This document shows, piece by piece, positions 44,149 through 63,534 of a stretch of DNA of 64,000 nucleotides. Every line of letters begins with the position of its first letter. The stretch's first letter is position 1. Under the pieces are notes generated by a model. That model saw only the letters and a list, made by a program, of their open reading frames with translations. It was not told the origin of the DNA and searched no databases. The translations under genes and the position numbers were made by a program. Source of the DNA: Escherichia phage Esco_phi_B-01; the sequence record OP292222.1. The stretch is one strand, 5' to 3'.

Positions 44149-44222
44149 GGCCCTGTAGCTGGACGGTCAAGCGAGCGACTCATAATCGCTGGATGGTGGT
44201 TCGATTCCACCCAGGGCCACCA
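44149..44222 (+). tRNA. tRNA with CAU anticodon (Met or lysidine-modified Ile)
   Basis: Hand-folded cloverleaf: acceptor ggccctg/cagggcc, anticodon stem agcga/tcgct, loop cuCAUaa, T-arm ggtgg-ttcgatt-ccacc, encoded CCA. Confidence 0.8.
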
Positions 44223-44226
44223 ATTT

Positions 44227-44301
44227 GGATGTGTAGCTCAGTGGTAGAGCAGTTGACTGTTAATCAATTGGTCCATGGTTCGAATCCATGCATGTCCGCC
44301 A
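44227..44301 (+). tRNA. tRNA-Asn (GUU)
   Basis: D-arm gctc-agtggta-gagc, anticodon loop cuGUUaa, T-arm catgg-ttcgaat-ccatg, 7-bp acceptor with two G-U pairs, encoded CCA. Confidence 0.8.
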
Positions 44302-44305
44302 AATA

Positions 44306-44381
44306 CGAGGCATAGCTCAGAAGGAAGAGCAACGGTCTTCTAAACCGTAGGTCGTAGGTTCGATCCCTACTGTCTCGACCA
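44306..44381 (+). tRNA. tRNA-Arg (UCU)
   Basis: Anticodon stem acggt/accgt, loop cuUCUaa, T-arm gtagg-ttcgatc-cctac, encoded CCA. Confidence 0.85.
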
Positions 44382-54699: not shown

Positions 54700-55116
54700 A
54701 TGACTCGTATCAACCTTACCTTAGTATCTGAATTGGCTGACCAACACTTAATGGCCGAATATCGTGAATTACCACGTGTTTTCGGTGCAGTTCGTAAGCA
54801 TGTTGCTAACGGTAAACGTGTTCGTGATTTTAAAATCAGCCCTACTTTTATCCTTGGCACAGGCCATGTTACATTCTTTTATGATAAGCTTGAATTTTTA
54901 CGTAAGCGTCAAATTGAGCTTATAGCCGAATGTTTAAAACGTGGCTTTAATATCAAGGATACTACAGTCCAGGACATTAGTGATATTCCTCAGGAATTCC
55001 GTGGTGATTATGTTCCTCACGAAGCTTCTATCGCTATTTCACAAGCCCGTTTGGATGAAAAAATTGCACAACGCCCTACCTGGTACAAACATTATGGTAA
55101 GGCGATTTATGCATAA
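54700..55116 (+). CDS. denV: Endonuclease V (pyrimidine dimer DNA glycosylase)
   Basis: 138 aa; essentially identical to recalled T4 endoV ([34 protein letters not shown]...). Confidence 0.95.
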
Positions 55117-55254
55117 GGGAGCAACCTGGACCTCACAATTCTGTGAGGGACTCCCGCCAACCTGTAATAAGGTCGAGCCCAAGTGCGGTAATGGGTAAAT
55201 GCAGAAATGGATGAATTAATGTGCCAAGGAGTGGCCCACAACTAAGAGACAATT

Positions 55255-55800
55255 ATGAAAACGTTTTTAACTGGTAGTTACCTATCCCTGATGAATGCTT
55301 TTGCAAACCATTCTGATGCTAGAGTAGAACACATTTGTAATAGTGGGTTTTATGTACCTGATTCACAAACCCTGTTTAAAGAATGCTGCACCCTAAAACT
55401 TGATGGTGGGCGCCAATCTGGTAAAACAAGGGCAGTATCCATTTTTGCGTCTGATTGGCTCGCAGGTGGTGGGACTGTAATTATTTTGTCTAATTGCGCC
55501 GCGTATGCTAATGTTTCGGCTACTGCAATCCGAAAGGAATATTTTAATAACCATACAGAAAGTATTAAGTACCGTTTGTACACTGATTCTGTTCGTAGTT
55601 TTATTGGTAACACTGCATGTAAATTCCGTGGATTATCACTTTCACGGGTTCTGTATATAATTGATGAGCCTGTTAAAACACCCGATATGGATAAGATTTA
55701 TGATGCCCATATAAAGGTGGTGCAACATTGCTGTCGTGCATCATGTGAAGAAAGCAATCAAACTACTCGCCCTCTGTTCTTTGTGATAGGAATGCAATGA
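55255..55800 (+). CDS. Small P-loop-containing protein
   Basis: 181 aa; Walker A-like GGRQSGKT; hydrophobic strand then DE (YIIDEP). Confidence 0.5.
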   Translation: MKTFLTGSYLSLMNAFANHSDARVEHICNSGFYVPDSQTLFKECCTLKLDGGRQSGKTRAVSIFASDWLAGGGTVIILSNCAAYANVSATAIRKEYFNNHTESIKYRLYTDSVRSFIGNTACKFRGLSLSRVLYIIDEPVKTPDMDKIYDAHIKVVQHCCRASCEESNQTTRPLFFVIGMQ

Positions 55801-56093
55801 TGACCGATGAAGAACTTTTTGAGTTCTGTTATTTCTCACGTAAGGTTCGAAGAGAGGACCTTACTACAAACTTTGAGCATGCTTATTTCTACCCATTAGA
55901 ATATGTATTCATGTCAGGGCCCTTTAAGGGCTCTCGTTTTAGATGCCACGCTCCTAGTATCCGATTAATGAAACAGGTTCCTTACTTCACCCTCGAGTTC
56001 ATCTCTGGGCCTTGTAAGGGTATTATTACTCGCAGTCTCTTGACGTATGACCAAGAGATTCATATGATTTCTGACTGGAAAAAATATGTCTAA
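55797..56093 (+). CDS. Hypothetical protein
   Basis: 98 aa; ATGA overlap. Confidence 0.45.
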   Translation: MMTDEELFEFCYFSRKVRREDLTTNFEHAYFYPLEYVFMSGPFKGSRFRCHAPSIRLMKQVPYFTLEFISGPCKGIITRSLLTYDQEIHMISDWKKYV

Positions 56094-56304
56094 ATTGACA
56101 ATTGAAGGCTCTGATGAAGCTTTGAAGATGTTTGTTGACTGGTTCCATGAACAAGGCGAACAAGGCTTTATGGAATGTTGGGACGGCGGCCAATGGAATG
56201 GTAAAGAAACTGTTTACCCGACTACGTATATCTCTGTTAGTGGTGGATATGACGGCCTTCGTTTTGTAGAATATGATATTGCATCTGATGAGGAAGTGAA
56301 ATGA
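56086..56304 (+). CDS. Hypothetical protein
   Basis: 72 aa. Confidence 0.45.
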   Translation: MSKLTIEGSDEALKMFVDWFHEQGEQGFMECWDGGQWNGKETVYPTTYISVSGGYDGLRFVEYDIASDEEVK

Positions 56305-56579
56305 TTGAAGATATCAAAGGTTACAAGCCACATACCGACGATAAAATCAGTAAAGTGAATGCCATTAAAGATGCTGAAGTTCGATTAGGCTTAATCTTTA
56401 AAGCATTAGAAGAAGAATACGTTGAAGCCTTTACATGCTCAGGTGTTGATAAAATGAGTGATGAAGAATTCGACCTCACTCATGAACGTCTCGCCCAGAT
56501 TCGTACGGCAATCGAACGCTTGAAAGAAGCTTCTATGTGGGCCTGCCGTTCCGTTTTCCAACCTGAAGAAAAATACTAA
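56301..56579 (+). CDS. Hypothetical protein
   Basis: 92 aa. Confidence 0.45.
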   Translation: MIEDIKGYKPHTDDKISKVNAIKDAEVRLGLIFKALEEEYVEAFTCSGVDKMSDEEFDLTHERLAQIRTAIERLKEASMWACRSVFQPEEKY

Positions 56580-56584
56580 AAGCA

Positions 56585-56641
56585 GTTTACATCTCCTGTA
56601 GACGTGGTACTATAGACCTATCAACTACAGGAGATTACAAA
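56585..56641 (+). promoter_or_regulatory. PeSL-type early promoter
   Basis: GTTTAC, 18 bp, TACTAT, AGACCTATCAA; stem tctcctgtag/ctacaggaga. Confidence 0.55.
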
Positions 56642-57100
56642 ATGTCAGAAATTAATTCAGAAGTATTCATCCGCCGCAACAAATTACGTCGTCAGTTCGA
56701 AACCGAATTTCGTGAACTTAACGCGTCCATCAAAAAAGCCGCCATTAAGAGCGGTGTCCCAGCTTTCTTTATTAAGTACTCTAATCACTTGTTGGACCGT
56801 GCTATCCAACGTGAAATTGACGAAAAATATGTTTTCTCTTTGTTCAAGAAGCTCCATAATCATGTTAAAGAAATCCATGAATTTTTAATCCAGGAGCCTC
56901 TTCCTGACGTAGAATCTGAAATTATCCCAGGTAAGGTGTATCGTCCACTGCGTCTCGAGATTACCGATAAAACCTTATGGTTGGGTATGACCGTAGATCG
57001 TAAACATCCTGATAAAGGATATTCATTAAAATGTCGTATGGCATTTGTTAACTCTAAACGTTTAGAAGGTAAAACCAGCACGAAAGTAATCTATCTTTAA
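56642..57100 (+). CDS. regB: RegB site-specific endoribonuclease
   Basis: 152 aa (T4 153); EVFIRRNKLRR, HLLDRAIQREIDE, RLEITD match recalled T4 RegB. Confidence 0.8.
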   Translation: MSEINSEVFIRRNKLRRQFETEFRELNASIKKAAIKSGVPAFFIKYSNHLLDRAIQREIDEKYVFSLFKKLHNHVKEIHEFLIQEPLPDVESEIIPGKVYRPLRLEITDKTLWLGMTVDRKHPDKGYSLKCRMAFVNSKRLEGKTSTKVIYL

Positions 57101-57112
57101 TAATGAGGTCTC

Positions 57113-57652
57113 ATGAAAAAAGTATTAGCCACTTTACTATTGACAGTTAGTATGTCTGCCTATAGCGTAGAGCCTACTTTCAGTAATGAACAACTCGATA
57201 ATTTACATTATGCGTATGCTTTCGGTGAACAATACCAAAAGTCGGGAAAGTTCAAAGAAAACCCTAATCAAAAAGGATTAGGATATATAATGGCCGGATT
57301 ATTATGGCAGGAATCGTCTGCCGGAATTAATCAAGGTTTAAATAAAGATAAGCACCATGCTTATGGCATGTTCCAAAATTACTTGCCTACGTTAAGAAGT
57401 CGTGTTCAACAGGTAGGTTGGAAGATGTCAGACAAAGAAATAATTCGTATGGTCCAAAAACGACAGAACAGTGCCTCTTGGGCCTACATTGAGCTGTCTT
57501 ATTGGATTAATGTTCACAAAGGTGACCTGAGAAAAGCGATTGCTTCTTATAATGCGGGCTGGAATGTCAAAGCAGGCAGTAAATATGCTTCCGAAGTTCT
57601 AGAAAAGGCCAATTACCTAAAATCTAAAAAGATGTTTGAGGCGGTATATTAA
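57113..57652 (+). CDS. Secreted protein with lytic-transglycosylase-like YNAGWN motif
   Basis: 179 aa; N-terminal signal-peptide-like MKKVLATLLLTVSMSAYS. Confidence 0.5.
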   Translation: MKKVLATLLLTVSMSAYSVEPTFSNEQLDNLHYAYAFGEQYQKSGKFKENPNQKGLGYIMAGLLWQESSAGINQGLNKDKHHAYGMFQNYLPTLRSRVQQVGWKMSDKEIIRMVQKRQNSASWAYIELSYWINVHKGDLRKAIASYNAGWNVKAGSKYASEVLEKANYLKSKKMFEAVY

Positions 57653-58009
57653 ATGATTAAACAGATGACTATAGCGCTTATGTTGATTGCTCCGGGAGTA
57701 TTAGCATCACAGGTTGATGATACAAATAATTCAATTGTCGAGTATGCCACCCGTACAGCAAAAGATTATTGTCATCCGAGTAATACTGAATGTGTTATTG
57801 AATTCAGTTCAAAAATAACAGCTGCTTTTAAAGATGGACAGAACGACGTCGAGCATCGCCGAATGAAAGAGAAAACTCTTTCTAAAAGATACGAGCAACG
57901 TCTAAACGTTACTGAATGTGTTCCGTCTGATAAAAAGTACAAAGAAATGTGCGCGTCTATGGTAGACAGACTCGTTGACTCTTACAACCGAGGGCTAAAC
58001 TCTAAATGA
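57653..58009 (+). CDS. Small secreted protein
   Basis: 118 aa; signal-peptide-like N-terminus; four Cys. Confidence 0.45.
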   Translation: MIKQMTIALMLIAPGVLASQVDDTNNSIVEYATRTAKDYCHPSNTECVIEFSSKITAAFKDGQNDVEHRRMKEKTLSKRYEQRLNVTECVPSDKKYKEMCASMVDRLVDSYNRGLNSK

Positions 58010-58485
58010 TTATTGATTATATTAAGGGCGATATCGTCGCCCTGTTTCTTCAAGGTAATATTATTGCACACGGGTGCAACTGTTTTCATACTATGGGTTC
58101 AGGTGTTGCCGGTCAATTAGCAAGGGCCTATCCTAAAATATTAGAAATTGATAAGACCACTACTGAATACGGTTCTCGTGATAAATTAGGCGACATGTCT
58201 ATTGTTTTTAAACATAAGCCTAATGGATTTGCAATGTGCTATAATTTATACACCCAATACGAACCAGGCCCTAATCTTGATTACGGTGCTTTAGTAAACT
58301 GTATGATAGAATTAAATCTACAAGCAAACGACCTTTTGTTTAAACCAAGAATTTATATTCCTCGTATAGGTTGTGGTATTGCTGGCGGTGATTGGGACAA
58401 GGTTTCTAAATTAATCGACATGTTTACTCCTGATATTGATTTAATAGTGGTGGATTATGAAAGCACATTACCCACATCCGTTTGA
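58006..58485 (+). CDS. Macro domain protein (ADP-ribose binding / hydrolase fold)
   Basis: 159 aa; IAHGCNCFHTMGSGVAGQLAR and PRIGCGIAGGDW resemble macro-domain Gly-rich loops. Confidence 0.65.
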   Translation: MIIDYIKGDIVALFLQGNIIAHGCNCFHTMGSGVAGQLARAYPKILEIDKTTTEYGSRDKLGDMSIVFKHKPNGFAMCYNLYTQYEPGPNLDYGALVNCMIELNLQANDLLFKPRIYIPRIGCGIAGGDWDKVSKLIDMFTPDIDLIVVDYESTLPTSV

Positions 58486-58669
58486 CCCTAAAAACAAAGC
58501 GGAAATTATTCGGCACTGGACCGAAACCCGAGTAACTAAATGCCCTATAAAAAGTCAGCATAACACCGATAAATGGTATATTGGTGAATACGTTGAATAT
58601 ACTTTTATAGATAAAAATAAACGTAAACAGCATGTAGAAGAATATTGCTTAAAGGTGCAATGGTTATGA
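58457..58669 (+). CDS. Hypothetical protein
   Basis: 70 aa. Confidence 0.4.
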   Translation: MKAHYPHPFDPKNKAEIIRHWTETRVTKCPIKSQHNTDKWYIGEYVEYTFIDKNKRKQHVEEYCLKVQWL

Positions 58670-58872
58670 GCCAAGCCCGAATTCTTAAAACGGCCAAATG
58701 TGAAAAATGCGAATGGCCAGTAATAGCCGCTTTATGCAACGATGAAATGGAATGTGAATTTGATTACTGGTGGTACTGTTCTAATAAAGGATGTTCTAAT
58801 CATAAGGGTGAAGGTTTTCATTCCGGTTATTGCGAACATCCTAAATTTGTGCGATATGGGGAACCCAAATGA
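58645..58872 (+). CDS. Cys-rich small protein (possible zinc ribbon)
   Basis: 75 aa; CEKCEW...CNDEMEC...YCSNKGCSNH...YCEH. Confidence 0.45.
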   Translation: MLKGAMVMSQARILKTAKCEKCEWPVIAALCNDEMECEFDYWWYCSNKGCSNHKGEGFHSGYCEHPKFVRYGEPK

Positions 58873-59051
58873 GTTTGAGTAAAGAACAGAAAGACAAATT
58901 GTTTGAGCTTATCCATGAGCTCATGGAACTTAATATAGAATGTGAATTTGATAACTCTCTGGACTGGGATTGGAGAGGTGACGAAGAGGATGAGTTTTCT
59001 AAAAAGGAAAACGAATTAATAGCTTATGTGAATACGCTTTAAGAAGGTAAT

Positions 59052-59624
59052 ATGGCTCAACTTTATTTTCATTATGCGGCAATGAACTCAGGTAAGACCG
59101 CTTCATTGCTAACGGCCGCTCATAACTACAAAGAACGCGGTATGGGCGTGCTCCTTTTAAAGCCTGCGATAGACAATAGAGAATCAAGCCATACCATTTC
59201 GTCTCGTATAGGGATTAGTCAAGAGGCTAATGCAGTGACTCCGGATATGGACCTATACGAGTTCTATCGTTGGGCTGAATCTCAAAAAGATATCCACTGT
59301 GTGTTTGTGGATGAAGCCCAGTTCTTAGAACCTGCACAGATAAAACAACTGGCAAAGATAGTAGACAATTATAATGTTCCGGTTATGTGTTACGGGCTAA
59401 GAACTGATTTTCAGGGTAAACTGTTTCCTGGTTCTGCTGAATTACTCGCTACGGCAGATAAACTCGTTGAGTACAAAGGTGTGTGCCATTGCGGCCGTAA
59501 AGCTACTATGACTGCTAGGGTCCAAGATGGTGTCGCAATTAAGGACGGAGCCCAAGTTTCTATAGGTGGCAACGATTCTTACGTGTCATTGTGCAGGAAG
59601 CACTGGATAGAAATAACGAGTTGA
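59052..59624 (+). CDS. tk: Thymidine kinase
   Basis: 190 aa; P-loop AAMNSGKT, VFVDEAQF, CHCGRKA zinc motif; matches recalled T4 Tk. Confidence 0.9.
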   Translation: MAQLYFHYAAMNSGKTASLLTAAHNYKERGMGVLLLKPAIDNRESSHTISSRIGISQEANAVTPDMDLYEFYRWAESQKDIHCVFVDEAQFLEPAQIKQLAKIVDNYNVPVMCYGLRTDFQGKLFPGSAELLATADKLVEYKGVCHCGRKATMTARVQDGVAIKDGAQVSIGGNDSYVSLCRKHWIEITS

Positions 59625-59631
59625 GGGTACT

Positions 59632-59910
59632 ATGGACCTAAATTCAAAGATTTTAATTCTAGCGTTCGCTGTGGCCATCTCTTATATTGTTCTTTCGCCC
59701 ATCATGGATGATGCGGCTTACAAAAGAGAGATAGAAGTTGTAGCAGCGACGTATAATGCTAATAATAAAGAATGTCCTAATAAAAATGGAGTGGATTTAA
59801 TTAAAGCACATTATATGCTTTCTATTACCTCGCCTATACAGAGGAATTGGGTTGAATATAATTTTAACGACGTGTTCTATTCTTATTGTCGTAAGCTTAA
59901 AAAGCTATAA
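59632..59910 (+). CDS. Small membrane-anchored protein
   Basis: 92 aa; N-terminal TM helix. Confidence 0.45.
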   Translation: MDLNSKILILAFAVAISYIVLSPIMDDAAYKREIEVVAATYNANNKECPNKNGVDLIKAHYMLSITSPIQRNWVEYNFNDVFYSYCRKLKKL

Positions 59911-60003
59911 ATAGTAATACTAACCGTAGAGCTTTAGCTTTTGGTAATCGCTATCGGTTAAGGCCGAAAGGCAAATTCGTATAAAATAACAAAGGACTTT
60001 TGT

Positions 60004-60297
60004 ATGGGTATTTTCCGTACAGTGGCTTGTATCCTTATGATTGGATGTTTAAGCCCGACATCTTCACTAGCAAACAAATCCGACCCTAAATTGATGGACG
60101 CCTTTGCTAGTAGTGCGATGCCAGTTTATGCGCAAATGAGTAAACCTAGTGTAAAGGCCTCCGAAGACTACTGGGCTTATGTAACTGCTTCTTGGAAAAT
60201 TTCAAATTGCAATACAATAGAGTCTTGCTCGATTGAAGGTCGGGCTATCGGAGAACGATACGCTAAACTAATGAAGGTAGATGATGAAATTCAATGA
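60004..60297 (+). CDS. Small secreted/periplasmic protein (possible rI-like by position)
   Basis: 97 aa; N-terminal hydrophobic signal; near tk as T4 rI. Confidence 0.4.
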   Translation: MGIFRTVACILMIGCLSPTSSLANKSDPKLMDAFASSAMPVYAQMSKPSVKASEDYWAYVTASWKISNCNTIESCSIEGRAIGERYAKLMKVDDEIQ

Positions 60298-60667
60298 TTT
60301 CGTACTTAGTCGAGGGACTGAAGTAGATTCTTATATTGGTTGGCTGTTGGTTTCTTTAGCCTATTTTAAGTCAGCCCATTTGGAAACCAAAAGCTATGCA
60401 AGACACAAAGCATATGACTTCTATTATACAGAAGTTCAAGGACCACTAGACCAGTTCAGTGAACAGTATTTAGGATTTAGTGGCAAAGAATATAAAGCAT
60501 CACTACCATCTGCTTCAGAACTGCCTAAAGACCCCATAGATTTTCTTGATGAACTTATTAAAGCGTCTGATAAAATCTACAAAAATCTTCCTAAGGCCAT
60601 CCAATCGACTTTGGACGACATCACTGGTGTCTTTTACCAGACTAAGTATTTGTTAACGTTAGAATAA
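60281..60667 (+). CDS. Hypothetical protein
   Basis: 128 aa. Confidence 0.45.
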   Translation: MMKFNDFVLSRGTEVDSYIGWLLVSLAYFKSAHLETKSYARHKAYDFYYTEVQGPLDQFSEQYLGFSGKEYKASLPSASELPKDPIDFLDELIKASDKIYKNLPKAIQSTLDDITGVFYQTKYLLTLE

Positions 60668-60764: not shown

Positions 60765-60947
60765 ATGTTAACTACCGAACAGATTGAGAAAATTATTAAA
60801 CTCGCCCAGCATATTGAAAACGCATCCAATGACCTAGCTGTTGAATATTGTGAAGGCTATTCATATTCCGGAATAGAGCAGTGTAAACGAGATTTGGCTA
60901 ACTCTAAAGCAGCCTTGGTTGAGTATCTTAATGAGTTGAAAGCATAA
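60765..60947 (+). CDS. Hypothetical protein
   Basis: 60 aa; GAGGAGA RBS. Confidence 0.45.
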   Translation: MLTTEQIEKIIKLAQHIENASNDLAVEYCEGYSYSGIEQCKRDLANSKAALVEYLNELKA

Positions 60948-61204
60948 TGGCTGTTGGATTTGCTAAGGACGGAGCTGAACAGCTCGAAATGGAAGCGGTC
61001 GTTCAGGCCGCTATAGTACACGCCCGTAAGCAAGTAGCAGTTGAACGTGAATCGGCTAAATATTGTTTTGATTGTGATGAAGAGATTCCTGAAGCACGAC
61101 GTCAAGCTATCAAAGGTGTGATATATTGTATAGGTTGTCAGTCAATGCATGATGAAATTTTTAAACGTGAGCCACGTAACTGTTGGCACAGGAGCATGAG
61201 ATGA
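60947..61204 (+). CDS. DksA/TraR-family C4 zinc-finger protein
   Basis: 85 aa; CFDC-x17-CIGC. Confidence 0.6.
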   Translation: MAVGFAKDGAEQLEMEAVVQAAIVHARKQVAVERESAKYCFDCDEEIPEARRQAIKGVIYCIGCQSMHDEIFKREPRNCWHRSMR

Positions 61205-62074: not shown

Positions 62075-62527
62075 ATGATTATCAATTCAAACTCTTGGCA
62101 CGTTAAATTACACGACCGTTTTTACGACCGTCATTCTCGACCACACTCTTTGTGTGCTTATTTCTGGAAAATGGTTTGGGCTTGTTTTGCTTGTGCAGTT
62201 GTTGCAGGTAGTACGCTTTTTGGATTAACTGTTGCAGGAGCTGGTGTATTAGAGCATTTCTTTGTATTAAGTACTCCCGTTCTGTTGAGCCTCGGGTTTG
62301 TTTTAGGGTTGACTGCAATAGCTCTTATTATTGCGCTATCCATCGGTTTGGCATTCGGTGCGATGAATTTACACGCATGGTATGATGCCCGTAAAGAAGA
62401 AAAGGAATGGGAACGAATTAAAGCTAAACGTGAAGGAAAGGAAATTAAAGAAAATATAGTCGTCCAATACATTAAAGCTCGTAAATCTAAGATGTGTCCT
62501 GTAATTCACTTCGAGAACAAAGAATGA
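62075..62527 (+). CDS. Membrane protein (multiple TM helices)
   Basis: 150 aa; AAGGAAA RBS. Confidence 0.5.
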   Translation: MIINSNSWHVKLHDRFYDRHSRPHSLCAYFWKMVWACFACAVVAGSTLFGLTVAGAGVLEHFFVLSTPVLLSLGFVLGLTAIALIIALSIGLAFGAMNLHAWYDARKEEKEWERIKAKREGKEIKENIVVQYIKARKSKMCPVIHFENKE

Positions 62528-63534
62528 GAACAGTTATGAAAGGCTACTTCGGTAGCCATCTTTATGGAACAAGTACTCCGGAATCCGATGTCGATTTTAA
62601 AGAAATCTTTGTTCCACATCCGCGTGATATTCTGTTAGGTACGGCAATGAACCATACCAACCTGAACACGAATAACACTGCTTCCAAAAACACTAAAGAT
62701 GATGTTGACCATGAGCTTTACAGCCTGAAATATTTCTTTAAACTGGCTGCTGAAGGCGAAACCGTTGCTCTGGATATGCTCCACACTCCACCTGAACTAG
62801 TGGTTAAATCTGATTTACCTGATGTATGGAAATTTATCCAAGATAACCGTTCACGTTTCTATACAACTAACATGAAAGCCTATTTAGGGTACGTCCGTAA
62901 GCAAGCTTCTAAATATGGTGTTAAGGGTTCTCGATTGGCTGCTCTGCGTGGTGTACTGGCAATTGTTAACCAGATTCCTGAACAGTGGGTCGATTATCAA
63001 GAAGGCATTCCAGATCGTTTACGTCGGACTAAGGTAGAAGATATCAAGCACAGGCTCCCTGAAAACGAGTTTTGCGAATGGGTATTTCATAACCATGAGA
63101 AAACAGGTCCTCAAACGTTCTATACTGTCCTCGGACGTAAGTACCAAACTACTTTGTCATTGGTCGAGCTTAAGCAATCTCTGAATAAACTCGATGCCGA
63201 ATATGGCGAACGTGCTCGTAAGGCTGAAGCCAATGAAGGTATTGACTGGAAAGCTCTGAGCCATGCTTATCGTGCCGGGTACCAATTGATGGAAATCTAC
63301 CAAACTGGTGACTTGGTATTCCCATTGCGTGAAGCCTCTATCATTAAGCTGATTAAAGCTGGTGAATTACCATTTAAAGAAGTTCAAGAACTTCTTGAAG
63401 ATACTGTCGATTTAGTTGAAGTTCTGGCCATCCAGGCAGCTAAGAATGGTATGCCTGCGAAGGTGGACATGAAGTTCTGGGACAAGTTCGTCGAAGAGGT
63501 GTACCTTGACAACCACAACTCTTATTACCGTTAA
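62521..63534 (+). CDS. Putative Pol-beta-type nucleotidyltransferase-domain protein
   Basis: 337 aa from ATG 62521; N-terminal YFGSHLYGTSTPESDVDF matches hG[GS]x9-13[DE]h[DE]h. Confidence 0.55.
   Translation, partial: RMRTVMKGYFGSHLYGTSTPESDVDFKEIFVPHPRDILLGTAMNHTNLNTNNTASKNTKDDVDHELYSLKYFFKLAAEGETVALDMLHTPPELVVKSDLPDVWKFIQDNRSRFYTTNMKAYLGYVRKQASKYGVKGSRLAALRGVLAIVNQIPEQWVDYQEGIPDRLRRTKVEDIKHRLPENEFCEWVFHNHEKTGPQTFYTVLGRKYQTTLSLVELKQSLNKLDAEYGERARKAEANEGIDWKALSHAYRAGYQLMEIYQTGDLVFPLREASIIKLIKAGELPFKEVQELLEDTVDLVEVLAIQAAKNGMPAKVDMKFWDKFVEEVYLDNHNSYYR

Follow-up and report, generated by a model that had tools for sequence, protein, structure and literature searches.

The open reading frame at 58006..58485 of the stretch of Escherichia phage Esco_phi_B-01 DNA analysed here (sequence record OP292222.1, 64,000 nucleotides; the window) is, as judged from protein similarity and gene order, the syntenic Dhakavirus ortholog of tk.4 (adfM) of phage T4. 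The product is a macrodomain protein that probably serves as an orphan antitoxin-like hydrolase, clearing from phage DNA the ADP-ribose installed by the toxin DarT2. On alignment, the active site of the family is of a Gln type, without the lysine that is catalytic in DarG and TARG1. The gene and its anti-defence role are already known, since the gene is annotated as Tk.4 in JS98 and T4, the records of which have for years carried the description 'A1pp phosphatase motif', and since an anti-DarTG2 role has been reported for the T4 ortholog. An earlier note had guessed the macrodomain and its role correctly from sequence alone, and little new biology is added to them here.

The reading frame, as read from the window sequence, runs from an ATG start to a TGA stop. 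The start of tk.4 and the stop of vs share the ATGA at 58006-58009, an arrangement that suggests translational coupling, and a GAGGG Shine-Dalgarno-like element lies about 11 nt 5' of the ATG. Homologs of the protein occur in 2,769 phage records. The dN/dS ratio is 0.01 against JS98, 0.08 against Kha5h and 0.2-0.3 against IME08 and T4 (range 0.01-0.31), so that the gene is under purifying selection, which is strong against close relatives (0.01-0.08). The overlap with vs, the GAGGG element, the matches to Pfam and PHROG profiles, the breadth of the phage records and the purifying selection together mark the reading frame as real and not a chance occurrence. The ORF map, Pfam and the annotated JS98 and T4 genomes identify its neighbours as vs, tk.3, a phage zinc-binding protein, tk.2 and tk (Table 1). 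A scan of positions 55000-60500 gave 18 promoter-like sites, where shuffled sequence would lead one to expect 16.5; with a count so near to expectation, the promoter and terminator scan of this interval does not inform the transcription unit. A terminator-like hairpin at 58025-58043 was set aside as a probable chance occurrence, since it lies inside the tk.4 coding sequence.

Table 1. Features of the tk.4 region, in window coordinates.
Feature	Position	Strand	Description
vs (valyl-tRNA synthetase modifier)	57653..58009	+	Upstream neighbour; context, outside the macrodomain function
tk.4 / adfM coding sequence	58006..58485	+	159 aa plus stop; single-domain macrodomain protein, from the ORF, Pfam Macro, identity to JS98 and T4 Tk.4 and the AlphaFold model
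Loop-1 region, residues 20-40 IAHGCNCFHTMGSGVAGQLAR	58063..58125	+	H22, N25 and G31-x-G33 of the predicted ADP-ribose cleft
Gln84, codon CAA	58255..58257	+	Aligns with the catalytic lysines K84 of TARG1 and K80 of DarG and with Gln85, which is essential in SCO6735
Loop-2 region, residues 119-130 PRIGCGIAGGDW	58360..58395	+	Predicted diphosphate-binding loop
tk.3 (DUF7202)	58457..58669	+	Downstream neighbour; its 5' end shares 29 nt, read in another frame, with the 3' end of tk.4; context

The assignment to tk.4 follows from comparisons at several levels. The surrounding 5 kb share 98% nucleotide identity with the Escherichia phages MN04 and JS98 (genus Dhakavirus, subfamily Tevenvirinae), and the protein itself is 99.4% identical to Tk.4 of JS98. 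Identity to T4 Tk.4 is 56% over 155 aa, without gaps (E = 8e-69). The gene order regB-vs.1-vs-tk.4-tk.3-(tk.2)-tk is common to the window and to the annotated genomes of JS98 and T4. The window protein and T4 Tk.4 are of the same length class (159 versus 155 aa), are both encoded between vs and tk.3, and both possess H22, N25, N80, Y82 and Q84. They nevertheless differ at 44% of residues, and the allele with a reported phenotype is that of T4. Loop 2 reads GAGIGKGNW in T4 Tk.4 and GCGIAGGDW in the window protein, which also carries a four-residue C-terminal extension relative to T4; the overlap with tk.3 is 29 nt in the window but 4 nt in T4. We considered whether the divergence from T4 might be the mark of fast evolution in an arms race and rejected the idea. 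The neighbouring genes show 45-71% identity to those of T4 and the divergence of tk.4, which falls within that range, is therefore ordinary.

The earlier note had called the protein a macrodomain on the strength of two glycine-rich motifs, and the profile searches bear this out. The Pfam Macro family (PF01661) matches with 33.8 bits (E = 3.7e-8) over profile positions 2-117 of 118, against a curated gathering cut-off of 22 bits, and PHROG 335, which is labelled 'phosphatase', matches with E = 1.6e-70. A search of solved structures with the single sequence as query brings up as nearest yeast Poa1p, Bacteroides BT1257, Streptomyces SCO6735, Mycobacterium tuberculosis (Mtb) DarG and human TARG1. 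A profile built from 62 homologs and compared with the PDB gives E-values of 3.8e-19 for BT1257, 8e-17 for TARG1, 6e-16 for SCO6735, 6e-15 for Poa1p and 2e-12 for Mtb DarG. An AlphaFold2 model built on the same 62-homolog alignment (mean pLDDT 94.2, pTM 0.89) has alternating strands and helices and, in keeping with the Foldseek matches, displays the three-layer alpha/beta/alpha fold of a macrodomain with its central mixed sheet. Among PDB entries Foldseek ranks TARG1, Poa1p, BT1257 and the DarG macrodomains highest (E 1e-9 to 1e-7, TM about 0.7), and the 50 matches listed are all either macrodomains or designed enzymes ranking among them; the latter we take to be constructs on a macrodomain scaffold. 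Profile, solved-structure matches and predicted fold agree, and membership of the Macro superfamily is secure.

TARG1-like macrodomains act on O-acetyl-ADP-ribose and ADP-ribose-1''-phosphate. Members of the group also act on Glu/Asp-linked ADP-ribose of proteins (PMC9411070) and on uracil-ADP-ribose of RNA (PMC13036486). Given such promiscuity, DNA may be neither the sole nor the main substrate of the tk.4 protein. One reading is that the protein mainly processes small soluble derivatives of ADP-ribose, such as the first two of these substrates or immune signals and toxins derived from ADP-ribose. The best single-sequence structure match is Poa1p, an ADP-ribose-1''-phosphate phosphatase, which is also a top Foldseek match (E = 4e-9); the invariant H22 aligns with the histidine of the Poa1p H-x-C-N-C motif, and an H23A mutant of Poa1p has been crystallised. 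RefSeq and PHROG both label the family 'phosphatase', and a comparative-genomics survey argues that the Macro domains of phages act for the most part on ADP-ribose derivatives of low molecular weight (PMC9503650). Strong similarity to Poa1p is, however, limited to residues 3-82, the N-terminal half (E = 4.5e-10), with the C-terminal half aligning weakly, and the word 'phosphatase' was transferred with a motif annotation and does not reflect an assay. The sole experimental phenotype of the T4 ortholog is moreover a loss of resistance to DarTG2, which modifies DNA, and no gene other than tk.4 reached significance in the screen concerned. We consider a main role in small-molecule processing improbable.

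The reading that we prefer, hydrolysis of ADP-ribose from DNA, directs attention to the binding cleft. Conservation was counted over 120 homologs retrieved from a large protein collection. Gln84, Asn80, Tyr82 and Gly33 are each present in all 120, H22 and N25 are present in every one of the 118 that align at those positions, and P119, G122, G124 and W130 vary little or not at all. The patterns G31-x-G33 and G122-x-G124...G127-G128 are kept and line up with their counterparts in the loops of TARG1, DarG and SCO6735; the two glycine-rich motifs singled out earlier are the pair of loops with which a macrodomain binds ADP-ribose. In loop 1, H22 and N25 align with H24 and N27 of SCO6735, and the position of N25 is that of N22 in DarG and N23 in the AdfM protein of phage PhiKZ; in loop 2, G124 aligns with G128 of SCO6735. 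The reference sequences were recovered from PDB alignments and aligned with the window protein and T4 Tk.4. A PDB query with the C-terminal 98 residues aligned SCO6735 only at loop 2 and not around Gln84, and the SCO6735 sequence was recovered by a PDB query with BT1257.

The catalytic position divides these proteins into two types. The motif is LITK in TARG1 (K84) and FPTK in both DarG (K80) and PhiKZ AdfM, where the catalytic lysine is K78 in the authors' numbering (PMC13309987). In the window protein and T4 Tk.4 it is NLYTQ, and in SCO6735 and BT1257 it is NMIGQ. TARG1 (OARD1/C6orf130) is the best structural match (Foldseek E = 9e-10, TM 0.72-0.81), yet its K84/D125 dyad is replaced by Q84 and A126, the latter at the position of D125, so that the Lys/Asp dyad is absent. 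The Gln-type pattern matters because SCO6735, which shares it, has been characterized. Q85A and N27S each abolish its activity on thymidine-ADP-ribose DNA, and G128E lowers its activity; mutation of the loop-1 asparagine reduces activity in DarG as well (PMC9411070), as does N23A in PhiKZ AdfM (PMC13309987). The mechanism proposed for SCO6735 is mediated by water and needs no lysine, the glutamine serving to position the distal ribose (PMC9411070). By analogy the chemistry of the window protein is probably lysine-independent too, and a Schiff-base or lysine mechanism of the TARG1 or DarG kind is unlikely.

SCO6735 and BT1257 share further characteristics with the phage protein, namely the glutamine within an N-x-x-x-Q motif, the equivalents of His24, Asn27 and Gly128, and a PRIGCG(L/I)AGG-W loop; they too are orphan genes, with no adjacent DarT. 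A bacterial homolog from Pelagimonas (P0080, 41% identity) likewise stands alone, with no toxin gene beside it, in keeping with an origin as an orphan hydrolase. Nevertheless, SCO6735 and BT1257 are only 27-28% identical to the window protein, and the phage family has a signature of its own, HGCNC...NLYTQ. The mobile loop that follows the glutamine is 5-6 residues longer in SCO6735 and BT1257 and, in SCO6735, carries the DNA-binding K89; the other DNA-contacting residue, K34, corresponds to S32 in the window protein and to alanine in most homologs. With neither K34 nor K89 conserved, DNA binding must be organized differently in the window protein. From these alignments the tk.4 family is best described as a sister group of SCO6735 and BT1257 with what would be the same chemistry but without their DNA-binding loop features.

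The comparison with DarG2 of Thermus aquaticus and M. tuberculosis is instructive in another respect. The fold, the loop-1 asparagine and the biological logic of erasing DarT2 thymidine marks are common to both, but the catalytic lysine (K80 in T. aquaticus DarG) is Gln84 in the window protein, and DarG carries a C-terminal DarT-binding domain and has an adjacent darT, both of which are absent here. The NCBIfam DarG model (NF048014) gives 27.8 bits against a cut-off of 250, the match spanning positions 1-142 of its 338; with the PADLOC DarG model the score is 28 bits over positions of about 2-145 of 329, the macrodomain part, to which the match of T4 Tk.4 is also confined. None of the neighbours of tk.4 (vs, tk.3, the zinc-binding protein, tk.2 and tk) has a Pfam match to DarT. 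The candidate identification as a DarG-type antitoxin was rejected on three grounds, there being no catalytic lysine, no C-terminal domain and no adjacent darT.

These observations also bear on whether the protein might counter DarT2 in a mainly non-catalytic way, through inhibitory binding to the toxin or through sequestration of the sites that carry ADP-ribose. There is precedent, in that catalytically dead SCO6735 (Q85A), DarG (K80A) and TARG1 (K84A) inhibit DarT in vitro by interaction, SCO6735 most strongly (PMC9411070). The window protein is, however, without the C-terminal domain by which DarG binds DarT, and the conservation of the catalytic-site residues H22, N25, Q84 and G124 across the 120 homologs argues for an enzyme. 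We regard non-catalytic inhibition as very unlikely.

Evidence for the biological role comes from T4. Phage lacking adfA and adfN, the latter being gp30.3, a NADAR enzyme that counters DarTG1, is still resistant to DarTG2 (PMC11825919), a result that predicts a further factor. AdfN (gp30.3) is not among the annotated genes of the tk.4 region in JS98 or T4. In a preprint of November 2025, a T4 transposon library was passed over E. coli expressing DarTG2 and tk.4 emerged as the single significant hit in the screen; a clean knockout of the gene sensitizes T4 to DarTG2 (bioRxiv 10.1101/2025.11.20.689424). The authors renamed the gene adfM (anti-DarT factor, macrodomain) and noted a likeness to the structure of the Mtb DarG macrodomain, while describing enzymatic removal of ADP-ribose from DNA by T4 Tk.4 only as something that 'seems likely' (bioRxiv 10.1101/2025.11.20.689424). 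The suggestion that the window protein reverses ADP-ribosylation by a host defence system is thereby supported through its T4 ortholog. We infer that the window protein, and any protein of the Tk.4 type, hydrolyses thymidine-linked ADP-ribose.

The sequence of events that we envisage is as follows. DarT2, the target of which is reported to be thymidine in TNTC motifs of single-stranded DNA (PMC13309987, PMC11825919), would use NAD+ to ADP-ribosylate such thymidines in single-stranded phage DNA and so block replication of the phage. The ADP-ribose would be bound by the Tk.4 protein in a cleft formed by loop 1 (H22, N25 and G31-S-G33) and loop 2 (G122-C-G-I-A-G-G128). Gln84, held by Asn25, would orient the distal ribose, with the chemistry itself carried out by a bound water molecule. 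Hydrolysis of the bond between ribose and thymine would free ADP-ribose and leave the DNA normal, and infection could then proceed. In support of such a scheme we note that SCO6735, with its Gln-type site, removes thymidine-linked ADP-ribose from DNA (PMC9411070).

The substrate range of SCO6735 raises a further issue. This enzyme acts in addition on Glu/Asp-linked ADP-ribose of PARP1 (PMC9411070) and on uracil-ADP-ribose in single-stranded RNA (PMC13036486), and TARG1 also clears both thymine- and uracil-linked ADP-ribose (PMC13036486). The tk.4 protein could then remove ADP-ribose that the transferases of other host defences attach to uracil in RNA or to Glu/Asp in proteins, with the DNA modified by DarT2 being one substrate of several, and a family present in so many phage records, with many hosts, may extend beyond the reach of DarTG2. 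The literature surveyed yielded, however, no bacterial defence that ADP-ribosylates uracil in RNA, and the adenine modification made by CmdT is described as irreversible (PMC13036486). Neither has a tk.4 phenotype been reported against other systems; HIDEN-SEQ gave new hits for six systems, with different genes for each (bioRxiv 10.1101/2025.11.20.689424). We judge such a broader role distinctly improbable.

Linkage chemistry weighs against the other role offered in the earlier note, regulation of the phage's own ADP-ribosyltransferases by erasure of the marks left by Alt, ModA and ModB. The T-even phages do possess these three transferases (PMC8120803), which places a writer and a potential eraser in the same type of genome. 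The marks are, however, arginine-linked, arginines being the sites of Alt and ModA (PMC8120803), and the linkages reported for the group of TARG1, DarG and SCO6735 are to thymine, uracil and Glu/Asp; arginine is absent from these reports and no trial of it was found in them (PMC9411070, PMC13036486). In the window, alt, modA and modB neither adjoin tk.4 nor lie near it, and the literature searched provided no supporting evidence. This proposal found no support, and we hold it to be barely credible.

Defence against DarT2 through hydrolysis thus remains the preferred reading, and here a second protein must be considered. Gp104 of PhiKZ, a chimallivirus macrodomain, was independently named AdfM and removes DarT2-installed ADP-ribose from DNA in vitro (PMC13309987). 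It resembles the window protein in its fold, in its loop-1 asparagine and in erasing DarT2 thymidine marks, the last of these being, for the window protein, the proposed activity. The two differ at the catalytic position, PhiKZ AdfM being Lys-type (FPTK) and DarG-like and the window protein Gln-type (NLYTQ). They differ also in their proximity to DarG. PhiKZ AdfM matches Mtb DarG with E = 9e-25 and the window protein with 9e-6, and the PADLOC DarG model scores 133 bits against PhiKZ AdfM compared with the 28 bits given above. From the identity of the catalytic residue and this gap in similarity to DarG, the T-even and chimallivirus AdfM proteins appear to belong to distinct lineages that do not share a catalytic residue. 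We did not find the distinction between Gln-type and Lys-type AdfM stated in either of the reports that introduced the name (bioRxiv 10.1101/2025.11.20.689424; PMC13309987). It is possible, and we put it forward tentatively, that the two were acquired independently from different TARG1-like branches, so that the same counter-defence is achieved with different chemistry (Gln versus Lys).

For T-even AdfM the mechanistic model should therefore be SCO6735 and not DarG. Recognition of a Gln-type site also guides the choice of test substrates and of catalytically dead controls, for which Q84A or N25A would be appropriate because there is no lysine to mutate. If the two AdfM lineages did arise independently, the Gln-type phage enzymes may, like SCO6735, accept uracil-ADP-ribose on RNA. 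In that event they would be general erasers of ADP-ribosylation on pyrimidine bases, shielding phages from more than DarTG2.

The gene following tk.4, the macrodomain gene, is tk.3, which overlaps the 3' end of tk.4 by 29 nt, compared with just 4 nt in T4. The additional overlap matches a C-terminal extension of Tk.4 in Dhakavirus. Close to its 5' end the tk.4 coding sequence also contains a terminator-like hairpin. This is probably a chance occurrence, but the structure could affect read-through out of the upstream gene vs.

Features in the tk.4 region and elsewhere in the window
Feature	Coordinates	Strand	Basis or remark
tRNA cluster (Met-CAT, Asn-GTT, Arg-TCT)	44149-44381		Three genes only
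denV (endonuclease V)	54700-55116		Protein comparison with T4
G+C-rich terminator-like hairpin	58025-58043	tk.4 sense	Terminator scan; AGGGCGATATCGTCGCCCT then GTTTCTTC
Central segment differing among tk.4 alleles	~58160-58240		Residues ~53-78; sequence comparison with IME08 and S16
tk.3 (DUF7202)	58457-58669	+	Pfam; starts inside tk.4, other frame
rI antiholin homologue	60004-60297		Pfam Antiholin
85-residue ORF, DksA/TraR C4 zinc finger	60947-61204		Pfam zf-dskA_traR, E = 1.6e-9
nrdC.11 homologue	62494-63534		Pfam RlaP, E = 4e-13

Several other genes in the window deserve comment. The three tRNA genes form a compact cluster with spacers of 4 nt. For the zinc-finger ORF, the JS98 annotation offers nothing beyond similarity to Pseudomonas aeruginosa PA4870, and the T4 locus annotation has no counterpart at the equivalent position. 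The RlaP family matched by the nrdC.11 homologue is described as an 'RNA repair pathway DNA polymerase beta family' nucleotidyltransferase.

Comparison of the tk.4 neighbourhood with T4 sets one gene apart. DenV shares 97.8% protein identity with its T4 counterpart, whereas the values for every other gene compared lie between 25 and 71%, the lowest being that of the rI homologue (25% identity to T4 RI). Such a disparity suggests that denV was recently transferred between the Dhakavirus and Tequatrovirus lineages.

Judged by identity to the window protein, two classes of tk.4 allele are in circulation among the T-even phages. The JS98 type (at least 90% identity) is present in about 300 phage records and the T4 type (less than 60%) in about 400. 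Since Kha5h, which like T4 is a Tequatrovirus, carries a JS98-type allele (95% identity), the distribution implies that tk.4 has moved between phage genera.

The window Tk.4 differs from that of JS98 by one amino acid. At the nucleotide level, pS is 0.22 (about 22% synonymous difference per synonymous site) and dN/dS is 0.01; the whole 5 kb region around the gene is 97.9% identical to JS98. By these figures silent divergence is concentrated locally in tk.4, and the patch may be a recombination tract.

By alignment, tk.4 is also an internal mosaic. IME08 (Dhakavirus) and S16 (Gelderlandvirus) have in common a central Tk.4 segment, …KLG-x-(F/Y)TQATG-x-x-GQIC…, in place of which the window, JS98 and Kha5h proteins carry …KLGDMSIVFKHKPNGFAMC…. 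The active-site segments on either side are near-identical between the two sets. The central hairpin of the protein could represent a variable surface that faces the substrate or a toxin.
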